Shown here piece after piece: positions 1-4,426 of a stretch of 4,426 nucleotides of DNA. Origin of the DNA: a virus (taxonomy: Duplodnaviria > Heunggongvirae > Uroviricota > Caudoviricetes); IMG/VR virus record IMGVR_UViG_2913123054_000003, positions 1 through 4,426 of that record; one strand, written 5' to 3'. Positions within the stretch are counted from its first letter, which is position 1. Each line of letters opens with the position of its first letter. Under the pieces are notes generated by a model that did not search any database, was not told the DNA's origin, and saw only the letters and a list, made by a program, of their open reading frames with translations. The position numbers and the translations under genes were made by a program.

Positions 1-405
1 AACCATCTGGCGGCGGCTATCGGGAATCGCCTGCTGAAAGATGGCCAGACAGTGATTGTGGTTACCGTGGCTGATGTCATGAGTGCTCTACACGCCAGCT
101 ATGACGACGGGCAATCAGGCGAAAAATTTTTGCGGGAACTGTGCGAAGTGGATCTGCTGGTTCTTGATGAAATTGGCATTCAGCGCGAGACAAAAAACGA
201 GCAGGTGGTGCTGCACCAGATTGTTGATCGCCGGACAGCGTCGATGCGCAGCGTGGGGATGCTGACAAACCTGAACTATGAGGCCATGAAAACATTGCTC
301 GGCGAGAGGATTATGGATCGCATGACCATGAACGGCGGGCGCTGGGTGATTTTTAACTGGGAGAGCTGGCGCCCGAATGTTGGTCAGCCAGGAATTGAAA
401 AGTAA
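1..405 (+). CDS. DnaC-like replication protein (helicase loader), 5'-truncated by window edge; C-terminal ~134 aa present
   Basis: Frame 1 is open from base 1 to TAA at 403-405. Translation ([29 protein letters not shown]...[70 protein letters not shown]...) aligns by eye with the C-terminal half of E. coli DnaC as I recall it, including the Walker B-like DLLVLDEIG and the MLTN / LLGERxMDRM / WVIFNW blocks. Confidence 0.88.
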
Positions 406-427
406 TTTTTACCGGGAGGAAATTTTA

Positions 428-1177
428 ATGGAAACCGTTTTTGATGCACTGAAAGCAATGGGAAAAGCCACGTCGGTAGAACTGGCAGCGCGACTTGATA
501 TCAGTCGTGAAGAAGTGCTGAACGAGCTGTGGGAACTGAAAAAGGCTGGCTTCGTTGATAAAAGCGTATACACCTGGCGTGTGGCTGATAACAACGTTCA
601 GCAGGAACAGCCAGCACTGCCGGAAGAAACCACTACGGCAACAGTGACGAAAATTTCGGAGAGCGATTTAACTTCGACGATTGAACAACGTGGCCCACAA
701 ACGGCGGATGAACTGGCTACGCTGTTCGGTACAACATCCCGCAAAGTGGCTTCAACGCTGGCAATGGCAATCAGCAAAGGTCGTCTGATTCGCGTTAATC
801 AGAACGGTAAATTTCGTTACTGCATACCGGGCGAAAAAATTAACGATATGAGCGCGCAAAGTACTGCACTGGTGCAAGTGGGCTCGGACGCTGACAAAAA
901 CGAAAAACAGAGCGATCGCAATCGTTTTTCGCCAACAAAAAGACATGAGCAGAGCGAAGAAACTGTAGCAGACATTGTGCAGTCGCTGCCATCGTTTACC
1001 GAAACGCGAGCGGATGACCTCGTTCTGCCATCGCTGCATCTGGCAAGCCGCGAACTGCGTCGGGCGAAAGGCCATGTCCAGAAGTGGGAGCGTGTCTGCG
1101 CCGCGCTGCGAGAGTTGAACAAGCACCGGGATATTATCGCCCAGCTTTGCCAGGAGGCAACCAGTGAGCAAGATTGA
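428..1177 (+). CDS. Prophage protein with two tandem winged-helix-like modules (resembles DUF1627-family proteins found next to prophage replication genes); 249 aa
   Basis: ATG at 428 preceded by GGAGG (415-419) with 8-nt spacing; the track's upstream ATG at 377 lies inside the dnaC-like gene and has no SD. Two similar segments ([46 protein letters not shown] and [40 protein letters not shown]) look like HTH/winged-helix units. Stop TGA at 1175-1177. Confidence 0.75.
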
Positions 1178-1185
1178 CTACCAGG
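1153..1185 (+). repeat. Gene-junction linker repeat, copy 1 (33 bp: SD + GTG start + first codons of downstream gene / last codons of upstream gene)
   Basis: ggaggcaaccagtgagcaagattgactaccagg matches 1609-1641 at 31/33 positions. Confidence 0.85.
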
Positions 1186-1370
1186 AATTGGCTGCTGCTA
1201 ACGCTTTCTTGGCGGATGTGCGGGCTGGGGCGTTTAACGACCTTTGCGCGGCGTTTGTCAGGCACGCAAAAATTGCAGGACTGGACGATGGCGGTCTCGT
1301 TACGGTGAAAGAAGCGACTGATGCGTTGCTGCACTGTGCAGAACAGCTTCGGGAGGGATTCAAGCAATGA
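1164..1370 (+). CDS. Small protein (68 aa) carrying the Ea22-like leader (MSKIDYQEL) joined to a segment resembling the C-terminal module of the downstream 213-aa Ea22-like protein
   Basis: GTG start at 1164 with AGGAGG (1152-1157) 6 nt upstream; overlaps the upstream stop by 14 nt. AFLADVRAG...[10 protein letters not shown] resembles AFLAEVRAQG...ICDELAAQLRKG near the C-terminus of the 1620..2261 protein. Stop TGA at 1368-1370 overlaps the next ATG (ATGA). Confidence 0.6.
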
Positions 1371-1633
1371 GTGAATCAAAATGCCAGGTTTATGGCAACA
1401 AGATAGAACCGTGTACGGCCCTGGCAAAATCCCTTGAGCATGATGCTGAATACACGACGCGAAAAGGTTTGCTGATATACAAAATCTATAACCATGAATT
1501 AATTCATTCACAAGACCTGATCATGCTGCGGTCAGGCGAGTTTTCTAAATCGCCGATTCGAATTTCATTTTGCCCGTTCTGTGGTGAAAGTCTGAAAACG
1601 TGGGAAGCGGAGGCAACCAGTGAGCAAAATTAA
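1367..1633 (+). CDS. Small Cys-rich protein, putative zinc-ribbon (88 aa)
   Basis: ATG at 1367 overlaps the upstream stop (ATGA); GGGAGGG at 1351-1357. Cys pattern C6, C16 ... C69-x2-C72 (FCPFCG). C-terminus EATSEQN repeats the C-terminus (EATSEQD) of the 428..1177 protein. Confidence 0.7.
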   Translation: MSESKCQVYGNKIEPCTALAKSLEHDAEYTTRKGLLIYKIYNHELIHSQDLIMLRSGEFSKSPIRISFCPFCGESLKTWEAEATSEQN

Positions 1634-1641
1634 CTACCAGG
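1609..1641 (+). repeat. Gene-junction linker repeat, copy 2
   Basis: ggaggcaaccagtgagcaaaattaactaccagg; differs from copy 1 at two positions (g/a, g/a). Same 14-nt overlap geometry between stop and GTG start. Confidence 0.85.
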
Positions 1642-2261
1642 TACTACGTGAGATAGCAAAACAGGCAACACAGGGCGAATGGGTCGCATTTATTTCGACG
1701 GGTACTGGTACGTATGCGGTGCATACGCCCGGTGATAAACGATGTGAAGACGTTATCAAATGGACCGGCTTTGACGGACAGAAAAACGCAGAGAACAACG
1801 CTCGTTATATCGCAGCTTTCAACCCTGCAGTAGTGCAGGCACTGCTGGATGAGCGGGAAGCCCAAAGCAAACGCATTGCAGAGATGGAGACTAATCTTGC
1901 GGCGCTGGCAGCGGAGAATGCGAGACTGAAGGTGATGTGTGAGGACCGCCGCAGGTTCATCATGAAAGGGGTGCAACTGGGGTATATCAAGGTGCCAAAA
2001 GCGGAAACAGATCCGGACCTTGAGACAATTCGTATTGCTATATCACCACAAAAGCCCATTCCAGCCACCGATGCTTTTTTGGCTGAAGTAAGGGCGCAGG
2101 GGGTAGAGATGATGCGCGAACACCCATCAATCAAACTTTGCTCTTTGACGCACATATGTGATGAGTTAGCCGCCCAGCTTCGCAAAGGAGAGCTGCATAT
2201 GATGTTTGACGCTGGCATTCACATCAAAGGAGAAGAGCATGGAAATAAAACCAGAAGATGA
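1620..2261 (+). CDS. Ead/Ea22-like family prophage protein with central coiled coil (213 aa)
   Basis: GTG start at 1620 with GGAGG (1609-1613) 6 nt upstream, inside a 33-bp repeat of the 1153-1185 junction. N-terminus MSKINYQVLREIAKQATQGEW and the IAAFNPAVVQALLDEREAQSKRIAEMETNLAALAAENARLK heptad-like stretch fit my recollection of Ead/Ea22-like proteins. Stop TGA at 2259-2261. Confidence 0.72.
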   Translation: MSKINYQVLREIAKQATQGEWVAFISTGTGTYAVHTPGDKRCEDVIKWTGFDGQKNAENNARYIAAFNPAVVQALLDEREAQSKRIAEMETNLAALAAENARLKVMCEDRRRFIMKGVQLGYIKVPKAETDPDLETIRIAISPQKPIPATDAFLAEVRAQGVEMMREHPSIKLCSLTHICDELAAQLRKGELHMMFDAGIHIKGEEHGNKTRR

Positions 2262-2595
2262 GTTAAGTAATATTGTTTTATTTCCGGTAAAAGAGGATGA
2301 CCCACGTAATCAGGTTAATTTTCTTTATGAGCCATCGGAAAGACCATATTGCCATCATGCCTCTGTCCGGGTTGACGAAAAAGAGCGTCAGGTCCGCTGT
2401 AAAATCTGCGGTGCAGTTGTGGAGCCATTTGACTGGATGCTCTCTGTGGCGAAAAGAGAAACCAGACTGGCAGATGATGTAAGGCTATTGCTCCAGGAGG
2501 AACAGGAAAGGCGAAAAAATATAGAAAAGCTAATTCAGATTGAGCGTAACGCGAAAGCGCGGATACGCAGAGCGACAAAATCCAGAACTGAATAA
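2239..2595 (+). CDS. Hypothetical Cys/His-containing protein, possible zinc-binding, with basic coiled-coil C-terminus (118 aa)
   Basis: ATG at 2239 (MEIKPEDEL...) with AGGAG at 2228-2232, 6-nt spacing; preferred over the track's ATG at 2206, which has no SD. Overlaps the upstream gene by 23 nt. Motif YCHH...x14...CKIC. Stop TAA at 2593-2595. Confidence 0.7.
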   Translation: MEIKPEDELSNIVLFPVKEDDPRNQVNFLYEPSERPYCHHASVRVDEKERQVRCKICGAVVEPFDWMLSVAKRETRLADDVRLLLQEEQERRKNIEKLIQIERNAKARIRRATKSRTE

Positions 2596-2661
2596 TTAAA
2601 TTTAGTGCTGTAAATAAAGTTTAATCCTTAACCGGAGGGATTTCTTCACCCTCAAAACATC

Positions 2662-2695
2662 AGGAGGCCGCCCGAAAGGGCGGTAATGAAAAATG
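2662..2695 (+). promoter_or_regulatory. Translation-initiation region with a GNRA hairpin between the SD and the start codon
   Basis: AGGAGG at 2662-2667 is followed directly by a perfect 6-bp stem CCGCCC (2668-2673) / GGGCGG (2678-2683) closing a GAAA loop (2674-2677), then 9 nt to ATG 2693. Linear SD-ATG distance is 25 nt; folded, it is about 9 nt. No U-run follows, so it is not a canonical intrinsic terminator. Confidence 0.45.
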
Positions 2696-3208
2696 ACAGA
2701 ATTAACCAAAGAGCAATTAATCGAAGAAGCCAAATTAAAAATAGCGATTGCGAAATGCCACCCCAATTCAGGGATGGCACGGGTAGAGGGCGAGTTATTC
2801 AAAATTGCACTGGCATCGCTGGAAGCAGAACCGATAGCGTGGGTATGCGGAGAAAACATAATCCTGTTTAATCCTGACACAGTTGAAGCATATGCAAAAC
2901 GTGCGGAGATATCACCTAAACCACTATTCGCCGCCCCGCCAGTGCTACCTGATAGACCGGTAGTGTCGCTGGAAGCAGAGCCGGTTGTAGACAGCGAGTG
3001 GTGGACGCTCTTACGGCAGTTCCTGATTGAACTTCAGGATCGCCGCAAAAACAGCATTTCTGAATCTGGAATCCGTGCTGAAACCCTGAACGATTTAATA
3101 CGACATATTGACAGAAACCTGGATATTGACGCGATGAAATCGCCGTTTGAACTGTCATCTGAAATTGTGGATTACGTTAATAAGCAACTGCGCAAGGAGA
3201 ATGCGTAA
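2693..3208 (+). CDS. Hypothetical prophage protein (171 aa) with an N-terminal module shared with the downstream DUF551-like protein
   Basis: ATG at 2693; long ORF with enterobacterial-like codon usage. Shares FKIALASLEAEPIAW and LFAAPP with the 3797..4297 protein; SLEAEP recurs internally (VVSLEAEPVV). Stop TAA at 3206-3208 overlaps the next ATG (TAATG). Confidence 0.75.
   Translation: MTELTKEQLIEEAKLKIAIAKCHPNSGMARVEGELFKIALASLEAEPIAWVCGENIILFNPDTVEAYAKRAEISPKPLFAAPPVLPDRPVVSLEAEPVVDSEWWTLLRQFLIELQDRRKNSISESGIRAETLNDLIRHIDRNLDIDAMKSPFELSSEIVDYVNKQLRKENA
2804..2832 (+). repeat. Module repeat copy A encoding IALASLEAEP (29 bp)
   Basis: attgcactggcatcgctggaagcagaacc matches 3911-3939 at 26/29. 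A 17-bp sub-copy (tcgctggaagcagagcc) recurs at 2966-2982 inside the same gene. Confidence 0.75.
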
Positions 3209-3384
3209 TGCAGGTGGCATTTGTTGGCTTATTACCGCACCCGATCCGCCTTTGGGCGGATATGTCACTCATAAAATCGCATTTTTTTACTACTGATGGC
3301 GGCATCCCGGCACCAAAGCGCCGCCATACAGGTATTGCAGCGGCACGACGTGCAGCAAAGAAACGCAGGAGAGCAAAACGATGA
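3208..3384 (+). CDS. Small hypothetical protein (58 aa) with strongly basic C-terminus; not in the ORF track (below length cutoff)
   Basis: ATG at 3208 overlapping the upstream TAA; GGAG at 3196-3199, 8-nt spacing. My translation: MQVAFVGLLPHPIRLWADMSLIKSHFFTTDGGIPAPKRRHTGIAAARRAAKKRRRAKR. Stop TGA at 3382-3384 overlaps the next ATG at 3381 (ATGA). Contains two GC-rich inverted repeats, so the region could instead be structured non-coding RNA. Confidence 0.35.
   Translation: MQVAFVGLLPHPIRLWADMSLIKSHFFTTDGGIPAPKRRHTGIAAARRAAKKRRRAKR
3244..3261. other. GC-rich inverted repeat (7-bp stem ATCCGCC/GGCGGAT, 4-nt loop)
   Basis: Perfect complementarity read directly from the sequence. The nearest T-run (3283-3289) is about 21 nt downstream, so it is not a canonical terminator. 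Confidence 0.5.
3296..3327. other. GC-rich inverted repeat (8-bp stem ATGGCGGC/GCCGCCAT, 16-nt loop)
   Basis: Perfect 8-bp arms with the same GGCGG/CCGCC core as the hairpins at 2668-2683 and 3244-3261. Confidence 0.45.
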
Positions 3385-3575
3385 AAAACCGTAAAGCAAA
3401 GATTCTGTTAGCTCGCAGAAACGGTGTTGGGGTCTGGCGATGGTTGAGGATTAGTAACAGACGAGTGAGGTTGACGGGGTGTTGCGGGGTGATGGGTCAC
3501 AGCTGTTGCAAAAAGCCCAGCGCGGCACAAAACCGCTGGAGAAATCACAGTTCTAAGCAAATTAAATGGGAGTGA
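3381..3575 (+). CDS. Small basic Arg/Trp/Cys-rich hypothetical protein (64 aa)
   Basis: ATG at 3381 with AGGAG at 3367-3371, 9-nt spacing; coupled to both neighbours (ATGA upstream, 1-nt gap downstream). Rich in rare Arg/Gly codons (AGA, AGG, CGA, GGG), so coding status is uncertain. Confidence 0.35.
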   Translation: MKNRKAKILLARRNGVGVWRWLRISNRRVRLTGCCGVMGHSCCKKPSAAQNRWRNHSSKQIKWE

Positions 3576-3576
3576 T

Positions 3577-3795
3577 ATGACTACACTATTCAGGAAAAAT
3601 TATCCGCGAAAGAGCAGAGCAACAGAATTCCTGTTTCTCATTCTGTTTATCGTGTTGATGACACCGATATTCCCGCTAATTTTTGTCTGGGTAATCGGGA
3701 AAATAATTGAGCCAGTTATTGAATTGTATAACGACGTGGTATGGGCGTCGTTCAACACACTGCACAATAAAATTAATCCGTATAAGGAAAACTGA
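3577..3795 (+). CDS. Small membrane protein (72 aa) with one predicted transmembrane helix
   Basis: ATG at 3577 one nt after the upstream TGA; GGGAG at 3568-3572 (short 4-nt spacing). Hydrophobic stretch FLFLILFIVLMTPIFPLIFVWVIG. Visibly more AT-rich than flanking genes. Stop TGA at 3793-3795, 1 nt before the next ATG. Confidence 0.5.
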   Translation: MTTLFRKNYPRKSRATEFLFLILFIVLMTPIFPLIFVWVIGKIIEPVIELYNDVVWASFNTLHNKINPYKEN

Positions 3796-3796
3796 T

Positions 3797-4297
3797 ATGG
3801 CAACTATTACCAGAGAAAGCGCAGAGATTAAATCATTCATCACTGGTTTTCTGAGCGATTCGGCGCACGATAACCAATCCTCAAACAGCCTGCTTGCCAA
3901 TGTGTTTCGTATTGCGCTGGCATCGTTGGAAGCAGAGCCAGTGGCATATCAGTATCGCCAGTGGGATGCAGAATATGATGAATGGGGAGAATGGGAAGAT
4001 TGCGGAGAATGCGTTTACGAAGGATTTGTTGAGGAAGAGAAATGTCAGGGGGCAGGTGTTCAGACCCGTAAGCTATATGCCGCGCCGCCAATTTCGGTAA
4101 CTCCGGATGGTTGGATAAGCCGTAGTGAGCGAATGCCGAACGACGCGCAGTGGTGCGTAGTGAACACAGAATACGGGTATTACGTGCAATGCTGGTCTGA
4201 AGGTCAAGGGTGGCTTGGTGATGATATCAGTATCCCTGAATGCGATGTAATCAATTGGATGCCTCTACCAGAACCGCCGCAGGAGGTGAATCAATGA
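3797..4297 (+). CDS. DUF551-like prophage protein (166 aa) with N-terminal IALASLEAEP module
   Basis: ATG at 3797 with AAGGA at 3785-3789, 7-nt spacing; the track's ATG at 3707 lies inside the upstream gene. C-terminal DGWISRSERMPNDAQWCVV...CDVINWMPLPEPP matches my recollection of the DUF551 signature (WIS..ER.P ... W.PLPEPP). Stop TGA at 4295-4297 overlaps the next ATG. Confidence 0.8.
   Translation: MATITRESAEIKSFITGFLSDSAHDNQSSNSLLANVFRIALASLEAEPVAYQYRQWDAEYDEWGEWEDCGECVYEGFVEEEKCQGAGVQTRKLYAAPPISVTPDGWISRSERMPNDAQWCVVNTEYGYYVQCWSEGQGWLGDDISIPECDVINWMPLPEPPQEVNQ
3911..3939 (+). repeat. Module repeat copy B encoding IALASLEAEP (29 bp), in the DUF551-like gene
   Basis: attgcgctggcatcgttggaagcagagcc; 26/29 identical to 2804-2832. 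Confidence 0.75.
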
Positions 4298-4377
4298 CCT
4301 GGCCTGAAGCATTCACAACGGTAGGAATTGCAATGGTGGTGGCGCTGGTGGTGTATTCGATTTGCCGCTGGGGATAA
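4294..4377 (+). CDS. Very small hydrophobic peptide (27 aa), single predicted TM helix; not in the ORF track
   Basis: ATG at 4294 overlapping the upstream stop (ATGA); strong AGGAGG at 4281-4286, 7-nt spacing. My translation: MTWPEAFTTVGIAMVVALVVYSICRWG, stop TAA at 4375-4377. Confidence 0.35.
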   Translation: MTWPEAFTTVGIAMVVALVVYSICRWG

Positions 4378-4426
4378 AAACGATTTGCGGGAAAAGGATA
4401 GTTAAGTAGAATTGCTGCGGGTGCTT

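Follow-up and report, generated by a model that had tools for sequence, protein, structure and literature searches.

A 68-residue gene of a lambdoid prophage joins the leader of Ea22-like proteins to one of their exchangeable C-terminal cassettes

The early region of a lambdoid prophage of the class Caudoviricetes (IMG/VR record IMGVR_UViG_2913123054_000003, positions 1 to 4,426; this whole stretch of 4,426 nucleotides (nt) is referred to as the window) carries a short open reading frame (ORF) of 68 amino acids (aa), here called the mini, upstream of a 213-aa Ea22-like gene. We consider it probable that the mini is an internally deleted Ea22-like gene, an in-frame fusion of the start of such a gene to one C-terminal module of the family (cassette 2), which has spread by recombination and has little or no Ea22-type activity. 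The mini has a leader-to-cassette architecture with a single junction, is nearly identical to full-length cassette-2 genes, occurs in varied contexts and is bordered by boundary elements. PHROG 27745, which represents the ORF, and Ea22 mosaicism were already known; the present analysis ties the ORF to one particular Ea22 cassette class and to a single deletion junction. A preliminary description of the window had correctly placed both ORFs (1164-1370 and 1620-2261, each with a GTG start) and had recognized that the mini lacks the N-domain and central coiled coil of its neighbour, an Ea22 leader being joined to an Ea22-type C-terminal module. The parts of the mini are the following.

1164-1370, + strand: mini ORF, 68 aa, GTG start (ORF list)
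1164-1187, + strand: leader
about 1188-1200, + strand: filler (within ..ELAAAN..)
1201-1224, + strand: AFLADVRA
1225-1340, + strand: cassette-2 interior
1341-1370, + strand: tail

Residues 14-68 of the mini are the usual C-terminus of many full-length Ea22-like proteins of 190-205 aa (e.g. P0056, P0096, P0101, P0103 and P0110). From position 1201 on, its DNA is 97% identical to the 193-aa Ea22-like gene of Escherichia coli E2865 (3 of 159 nt differ), a full-length cassette-2 gene that is likewise followed by a homolog of the 88-aa gene lying next to the mini. The mini is thus a recent derivative or recombinant of another gene; it is not, as had been proposed, an old diverged paralog of the C-terminal module of its 213-aa neighbour, whose cassette belongs to a different class. 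Among 80 IMG/VR loci with cassette 2 there are 58 long genes and 22 minis, one of them cut by a contig end; the other 21, two E. coli genomes and the window make up 24 complete minis. All 24 have one and the same junction, starting VS[KRG]IDYQ[ED]. Upstream of them stand no fewer than four different sequences (DUF1627, DUF977, and genes with the ends ..RKGGNQ* or ..MKEGNQ*), and their tails are of several kinds. Moreover, 34 of the 46 sites polymorphic among minis are also found in long cassettes, and the window mini differs from long genes by as little as 3 nt and from most other minis by 14-23 nt. One junction in all minis, together with varied contexts and sites shared with long cassettes, argues for a single deletion followed by spread and exchange.

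The fusion would have joined, in one in-frame step, the conserved start of an Ea22-like gene (Shine-Dalgarno sequence, GTG, MSKIDYQ) to AFLADVRA of cassette 2, with loss of the N-domain, the coiled coil and the middle segment. Both gene-boundary elements would have been kept, i.e. the 5' junction overlapping the upstream stop and the 3' ..QLREG.. tail acting as ribosome-binding site of the next gene, so that translation of the mini would have remained coupled to that of its neighbours within the early operon. The mini would then have moved among Escherichia prophages through the same boundary-sequence recombination that reshuffles full-length Ea22-like genes, with repeated exchange between minis and full-length genes after deletion and spread.

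No Pfam family, PF13935 (Ead/Ea22) included, matched the mini at E ≤ 0.1, and only about 8 leader residues are retained of the region that PF13935 models. Judged by its sequence, the mini is derived from the Ead/Ea22 family yet is not a member of it as PF13935 defines membership. It matches PHROG 27745 (residues 2-63 against profile positions 2-63 of 76, E 1.5e-39) as well as the C-terminal part of the Ea22-like PHROGs 492, 368 and 614, the same region that cassette 1 matches, and its relatives form 36 protein clusters, some labelled 'ead/Ea22-like, partial'. PHROG 27745 and the RefSeq entries describe the same ORF and give neither origin nor function. The Prokaryotic Genome Annotation Pipeline (PGAP) calls it 'hypothetical protein' or a pseudogene (RefSeq entries e.g. 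WP_089560719.1 and JG531_RS13805); E. coli RM10740 is among the genomes in which it is annotated. For the copy of O157:H7 ECP19-598 (L003, 3041-3241), PGAP gives a pseudogene, 'incomplete; missing N-terminus', the feature starting 30 nt 3' of the GTG used elsewhere.

Cassette 2 itself is present in 57 clusters of a library of 1.84 billion proteins, almost always at the C-terminus of proteins of 80-270 aa. Since its relatives reach down to 37-55% identity, it is a real conserved unit. In a few proteins (P0180, P0194) the cassette is internal and precedes an extra domain with the motif EGWTPEHDD..WPWD..WWK; to judge from these, it can also act as a linker that leads into a second domain. A HMMER search of the whole library with the mini gave one spurious match, to a repeat protein of 4,538 aa (P0157, E 1e-23); it was rejected as a compositional or repeat artefact of 28 weak repeats (..AAAVTIADVSGLEDGGAITVTLALD..), and is no relative.

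The neighbouring 213-aa protein is a regular member of the Ead/Ea22 family (PF13935, residues 2-104, E 5.4e-26, 92.3 bits against a cut-off of 27) and its identity to the Ea22-like proteins from Escherichia sp. E4385 and E3659 is about 100%. Its gene is made up as follows.

1620-2261, + strand: Ead/Ea22-like gene, 213 aa, GTG start (PF13935)
5' part, + strand: leader; N-domain and coiled coil (residues 2-104); middle segment
2061-2096, + strand: boundary PATDAFLAEVRA
2097-2168, + strand: cassette-1 interior
2169-2192, + strand: AAQLRKGE
2193-2234, + strand: lambda-type tail LHMMFDAGIHIKGE
3' end, + strand: 8-aa read-through

BLASTP of the mini against this protein aligned two short segments only, the leader (7/9, E 0.027) and ..AFLA[DE]VRA (8/15, E 0.004; shuffle p about 0.005). 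A further piece, AEQLREG in the mini and AAQLRKG in the 213-aa protein, is visible but not significant by itself, and beyond the AFLAxVRA motif the two proteins are no more alike than expected by chance (shuffle p about 0.2). The first 8 residues, described earlier as shared, are similar without being identical (MSKIDYQEL and MSKINYQVL; 6 of 8, or 7 of 9, residues agree), and the resemblance reported for the C-terminal 60 or so residues holds for the boundary segments and fails for the interiors. Profiles of the two cassettes aligned over 20 columns only. Broader profiles aligned over their whole length (Prob 98.3%, E 2e-14, 58 columns), but the interiors alone, with both boundary motifs removed, showed no similarity (E 0.36, 1 column). 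The resemblance between the mini and the 213-aa protein is real, and is limited to three short pieces: the leader, AFLA[DE]VRA and A[EA]QLR[EK]G. The two C-terminal modules occupy the same position in the same family architecture, with common boundary segments and unrelated interiors.

This architecture emerged when the C-terminal ends of the 213-aa protein's 120 best relatives were listed. A leader MSxI[ND]YQALRE is followed by the N-domain and coiled coil, a variable middle, PATDAFLAEVRA, a cassette, and an end of the form ..[FA]A[QE]LRKGGNQ. The leader in its general form, M/V-S-x-I-[ND]-[YS]-Q, stands at the N-terminus of 117 of the 120, as well as in both window genes and in lambda ea22. 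The C-terminal cassettes, 22 to 75 residues long, fall into about 12 unrelated-looking classes. The cassette borders, PATDAFLAEVRA on one side and A[AE]QLR[KE]G on the other, are present in the 213-aa protein (class 1) and, as AFLADVRA and AEQLREG, in the mini (class 2). Cassettes have been reassorted freely at PATDAFLAEVRA: the context of the window's own gene, ETIRIAISPQKP, is found with nine cassette classes, and one cassette with six contexts. Breakpoints of database matches coincide with the boundary motifs, matches beginning for instance at window position 2058 or stopping at 2087. A protein-database search with cassette 1 alone yielded only 11 short fragments and added little diversity. 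Ea22 genes have been described as mosaic, with dissimilar C-terminal domains (PMC10834534; PMC7093339), and lambdoid mosaics as arising through homology-driven recombination in which divergence is tolerated (De Paepe et al. 2014, PMC3945230); the family-wide reassortment of cassettes agrees with both. PATDAFLAEVRA would accordingly be of interest as a recombination joint inside a protein for the exchange of at least 12 tail cassettes.

A second kind of boundary lies between genes. The elements of the window are listed below.

1153-1185, + strand: junction copy 1, with GGAGG at 1153-1157, the GTG of the mini at 1164, leader codons, and the TGA stop of the DUF1627 gene at 1175-1177 in another frame
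1609-1641, + strand: junction copy 2, with GGAGG at 1609-1613, the GTG of the 213-aa gene at 1620, and the TAA stop of the 88-aa gene at 1631-1633
1351-1370, + strand: 3' junction of the mini, with GGGAGGG at 1351-1357 (codons R-E-G) 9 nt before the ATG of the 88-aa gene at 1367, which forms an ATGA overlap with the TGA of the mini
2226-2241, + strand: 3' signal of the 213-aa gene, with AAAGGAG at 2226-2232 (codons K-G-E) 6 nt before the ATG of the zinc-ribbon gene at 2239

The two junction copies form a 33-nt direct repeat (31/33 identical) that starts 11 nt before each GTG; none of 200 shuffles gave two matches. GGAGG, GTG and leader thus come as one element in both window genes (1153-1185 and 1609-1641), and lambda ea22 also begins GTG AGC GAA ATT AAC. 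In a set of 84 related loci the 33-nt junction has 62 copies, located in L001-L083 and none on the reverse strand, and it recurs at gene boundaries in 55 of these loci, on the + strand only. It can be read as GGNQ* in frame 1, as EATSEQ[DN]* in frame 2, and in frame 3 as the Ea22 leader VSKI[DN]YQ with its GGAGG and GTG. Upstream ORFs of at least 60 codons that end in the junction number 21 in the GGNQ* frame and 38 in the EATSEQ[DN]* frame. The junction thus provides stops for preceding genes in two frames and, in the remaining one, the start of the following gene, which explains why the unrelated DUF1627 and 88-aa genes of the window both end in ..EATSEQ[DN]. Elsewhere, Ea22-like genes end in ..RKGGNQ within the element. 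Breakpoints of phage matches also fall at junction copy 2, where H1 and H13 begin (window position 1609) and H6-H10 stop (about 1623). A leader homogenised by local recombination, as had been suggested for the two window genes, is not needed to explain their similarity, the 33-nt element being a family-wide gene-boundary sequence.

At the other end of the genes, the arrangement of ribosome-binding site and ATGA overlap seen after the mini is also found after a full-length cassette-2 gene (L002). The K/R-G-E/G ('+GE') end of Ea22 proteins has been noted before, its significance remaining unexplained (Dydecka et al. 2020, PMC7093339). On the evidence of the two window genes, this end coincides with the Shine-Dalgarno sequence of the following gene (AAAGGAG, GGGAGGG). 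A 16-nt repeat, D5 (2183-2198 and 2225-2240), marks the two K-G-E sites of the 213-aa gene. The conserved ends of Ea22-like proteins could in this way be accounted for by constraints at the DNA level, which may be useful for work on lambdoid early regions. A literature search for 'linker' sequences conserved at the gene boundaries of lambdoid phages brought up no usable result.

The same signals bear on expression of the mini. Since GGAGG lies 6 nt before its GTG, the GTG overlaps the upstream stop and its own stop overlaps the next ATG, we infer that the mini is translated, probably into a tail-only protein with the helix-loop-helix form that modelling predicts. Such a product would be acidic (net charge about -3, by our count from the sequence), consisting of the tail module only. 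Because the coiled coil of full-length Ea22 proteins is missing, it most likely has little Ea22-type activity or none; at most, the mini may compete for whatever cassette 2 binds, and it would not be matched to the neighbouring 213-aa protein. Its reading frame may have been kept partly since in-frame reading preserves coupling to the downstream gene. In itself the mini would then matter little, as one more product of the known mosaic shuffling of Ea22 genes, already catalogued without a function.

Several observations weigh against an origin by one deletion with little function left. The filler ELAAAN (13 nt) at the fusion point has no other context in the loci and is untraceable, and one-step deletion is therefore not proven. 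The 62-nt junction specific to minis was detected in 73 of the 5,426 complete E. coli genomes, each time in the chromosome (cassette-2 DNA of whatever kind occurs in 329 genomes), a frequency higher than a short-lived accident would lead one to expect. All 24 complete loci have the ORF intact, with 15 distinct DNA alleles and a pooled ratio of nonsynonymous to synonymous polymorphism (pN/pS) of 0.21, which would fit a maintained protein. The AlphaFold2 (AF2) model of the mini (helix 6-37, loop, helix 48-67) is only moderate, with a mean predicted local distance difference test score (pLDDT) of 73 and a predicted template modelling score (pTM) of 0.40. As to the filler, ELAAANA (1188-1206) resembles both the coiled-coil segment (E)LAAENA (cf. 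1905-1925) and EL(RE)AA of the leader region, and is too short to decide between them; with such a resemblance, the mini might be the result of two deletions rather than one.

The strongest competing explanation, which we nevertheless regard as rather unlikely, is that the mini is a selected, functional small protein: a free cassette-2 module that binds the partner of full-length cassette-2 Ea22-like proteins and, having no coiled coil, acts as a decoy or competitor, also towards the Ea22-like proteins of further prophages, whether resident or incoming. It would account for the intact ORF and low pN/pS, the strong Shine-Dalgarno sequence and translational coupling, the 73 E. coli genomes in several contexts, and the conservation of cassette 2, whose relatives down to 37-55% identity point to a real folded unit; the C-terminal domain of lambda Ea22 indeed folds and dimerises alone (PMC10834534). 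The pooled pN/pS of 0.21 (0.31 for long cassettes) was rejected as evidence of selection on the mini, however, as 34 of the 46 variable sites are common to full-length cassettes: with most variation shared with full-length genes, and maybe filtered there, the low value says little about the mini. Changes private to minis (7 nonsynonymous and 5 synonymous, the window's D44G among them) are not distinguishable from neutral, and by this measure no mini-specific selection is shown. Disrupted variants exist, most mini loci have no full-length gene nearby, and the ORF could be kept only for in-frame coupling to the downstream gene. Moreover, the lambda C-terminal domain alone fails to reproduce the pro-lysogenic effect (PMC10834534). 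In a more specific form, which appears quite improbable, the mini would be a maintained anti-Ea22 decoy, its free cassette-2 tail, an early product of the prophage operon, titrating a host or phage partner of cassette-2 Ea22-like proteins. If that were true, the choice between lysis and lysogeny could be shifted, in its own prophage or in competitors that carry the same cassette, and the interchangeable cassettes would represent diversified partner specificity driven by boundary-sequence shuffling. If tail-only forms are active, they would also offer a simple handle to find what Ea22 tails bind.

We likewise give little credence to the opposite proposal, that the mini is a dead remnant, an untranslated or unstable peptide in decay. 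The PGAP call of the O157:H7 copy as an incomplete pseudogene, the existence of frameshifted or truncated alleles (P0029, P0030 and P0034) and the neutral look of the private substitutions would all suit a decaying gene. On the other hand, the consensus GGAGG placed 6 nt ahead of the GTG and the overlap with either neighbour in a same-strand operon make it almost certain that ribosomes read the mini; the 24 complete loci contain 0 stops or frameshifts, and the AF2 model is a plausible hairpin.

Domain-only microprotein inhibitors such as plant LITTLE ZIPPER and Id proteins are short, consist of one module of a larger oligomeric protein and keep its oligomerisation domain. As a short protein with one module of a larger one the mini is like them, an analogy that lies behind the earlier suggestion of a dominant-negative partner; it differs from them in lacking the coiled coil and in having only the variable tail, with no match to the tail of its neighbour. 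That the mini and the adjacent gene are old paralogs, with the mini acting dominant-negatively through hetero-association of the C-terminal modules, is the least supported explanation and very unlikely: the common boundary helices (AFLAxVRA.., ..QLRxG), the end-to-end alignment of broad profiles (E 2e-14), the predicted helix-loop-helix of both cassettes and the recurrence of the mini, the 88-aa gene and an Ea22-like gene together in L007 speak for it, but the interiors are unrelated (p 0.2; E 0.36) and give no hint of pairing, the mini cassette is 97% identical to a different full-length gene, and the coiled coil, the likely oligomerisation element, is missing. The survey of related prophages likewise gave no support through co-occurrence, a full-length gene with the Ea22 N-domain lying within 3 kb in only 6 of the 24 mini loci, and the order mini, 88-aa gene, Ea22-like gene in the window and L007 only. 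Neither a common interaction or oligomerisation module nor regular co-occurrence with the supposed target was found, and the mini probably does not regulate its larger neighbour.

Structure prediction had been suggested as a means of comparing the two C-terminal modules. The AF2 model of the 213-aa protein is poor (mean pLDDT 57), its cassette helices, 150-167 and 176-188, being of low confidence. The predicted topology of the mini and of cassette 1 looks the same, a helix-loop-helix in both, with confidence too low for a claim of a common fold. Foldseek searches of BFVD and PDB with the mini model gave no match with E < 1, a two-helix hairpin being uninformative, and a PDB sequence search with the mini gave no matches. 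The 213-aa protein had a marginal PDB match to the C-terminal domain of lambda Ea22 (8dsx, E 0.93), which was set aside as explained by the common terminal peptide. Clusters of Cys and His occur in several cassette classes (C28, H57 and C58 in the mini; H165, C171, H175 and C177 in cassette 1). In distant relatives of cassette 2 the Cys residues are replaced by I or V while H57 is invariant, and an essential metal site is unlikely because of these replacements.

The closest known system is Ea22 of lambda and its variants V1-V3 of Shiga toxin (Stx) phages (PF13935; PDB 8DSX; Goddard et al. 2024, PMC10834534; Dydecka et al. 2020, PMC7093339), for which experiments on lambda and Stx phages have established a tetrameric protein and a pro-lysogenic phenotype (PMC10834534, PMC7093339). 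With these the 213-aa protein shares its leader (lambda VSEINSQALREAAE), the N-domain plus coiled coil of PF13935, and a variable C-terminal module; the mini has the family leader and one C-terminal module. After its cassette, the 213-aa protein also ends in a lambda-like peptide (LHMMFDAGIHIKGE against lambda LHMMSDAGIRIKGE*, about 90% DNA identity by eye), the gene tail at 2193-2261 aligning to the 3' end of lambda ea22 (lambda locus L084, 548-600, minus strand); loss of the lambda stop codon has added the eight residues EHGNKTRR. Unlike lambda ea22, the window genes lie 3' of replication genes (IstB/DnaC-like and DUF1627) and not in the exo-xis region, exo and xis both being absent from the window. 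The cassettes are short predicted helix-loop-helix structures, whereas the lambda C-terminal domain has an alpha-beta fold. The mini further differs from Ea22 in lacking everything that PF13935 models, and its leader-plus-tail form is not described in PMC10834534 or PMC7093339.

The boundaries found here may also be compared with those of whole phage modules. In the modular theory of Susskind and Botstein, modules of lambdoid phages have conserved boundary ('linker') sequences. Short conserved borders, unrelated interiors and coinciding homology breakpoints are shared with such linkers and with homology-driven mosaicism (PMC3945230), and together form a signature of recombination at the borders of exchanged fragments. 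Two features differ from lambdoid linkers: the gene boundaries of the window double as translation signals (Shine-Dalgarno sequence, start, overlapping stop), and PATDAFLAEVRA lies inside a protein, so that protein tails are swapped as well as whole genes.

The window as a whole is one same-strand block of early genes of a lambdoid prophage, with starts and stops overlapping throughout. Besides the mini and the 213-aa gene it comprises the following genes.

52-405, + strand: IstB/DnaC-like gene (ORF list and domain search)
377-1177, + strand: DUF1627 gene, immediately upstream of the mini, ending ..EATSEQD* in junction copy 1
1367-1633, + strand: 88-aa four-Cys gene (PHROG 4030), ending ..EATSEQN* within junction copy 2
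2239-2595, + strand: zinc-ribbon gene, 118 aa, ATG at 2239
3' of the zinc-ribbon gene, + strand, in this order: 171-aa gene, DUF4014 gene, DUF551 gene

Region 1100-2300 is strongly mosaic, since no single phage or E. coli record covers even 80% of it. Searches of NCBIfam gave no matches for any of five proteins, a search of Rfam gave nothing, and a scan for promoters and terminators gave nothing beyond shuffle expectation. Antisense and alternative-frame ORFs (minus strand 1134-1511, 1805-2218, 752-1171 and 1644-1976; plus strand 1174-1308) have no PHROG match and were discarded as spurious. A homolog of the 88-aa gene follows cassette 2 in L001, L002 and L004-L008, in both mini and full-length contexts. 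The region of this gene (1361-1623) is about 92% identical in DNA to the P1-like phages P7, SJ46 and JL22 and about 90% to D6, the homology ending at the junction element; such similarity indicates that lambdoid prophages have exchanged sequence with P1-like plasmid prophages. Further downstream, a 29-nt repeat family (2804-2832, 2954-2982 and 3911-3939) encodes IALASLEAEP, twice in the 171-aa protein and once in the DUF551 protein, and may be another conserved recombination linker of the region.

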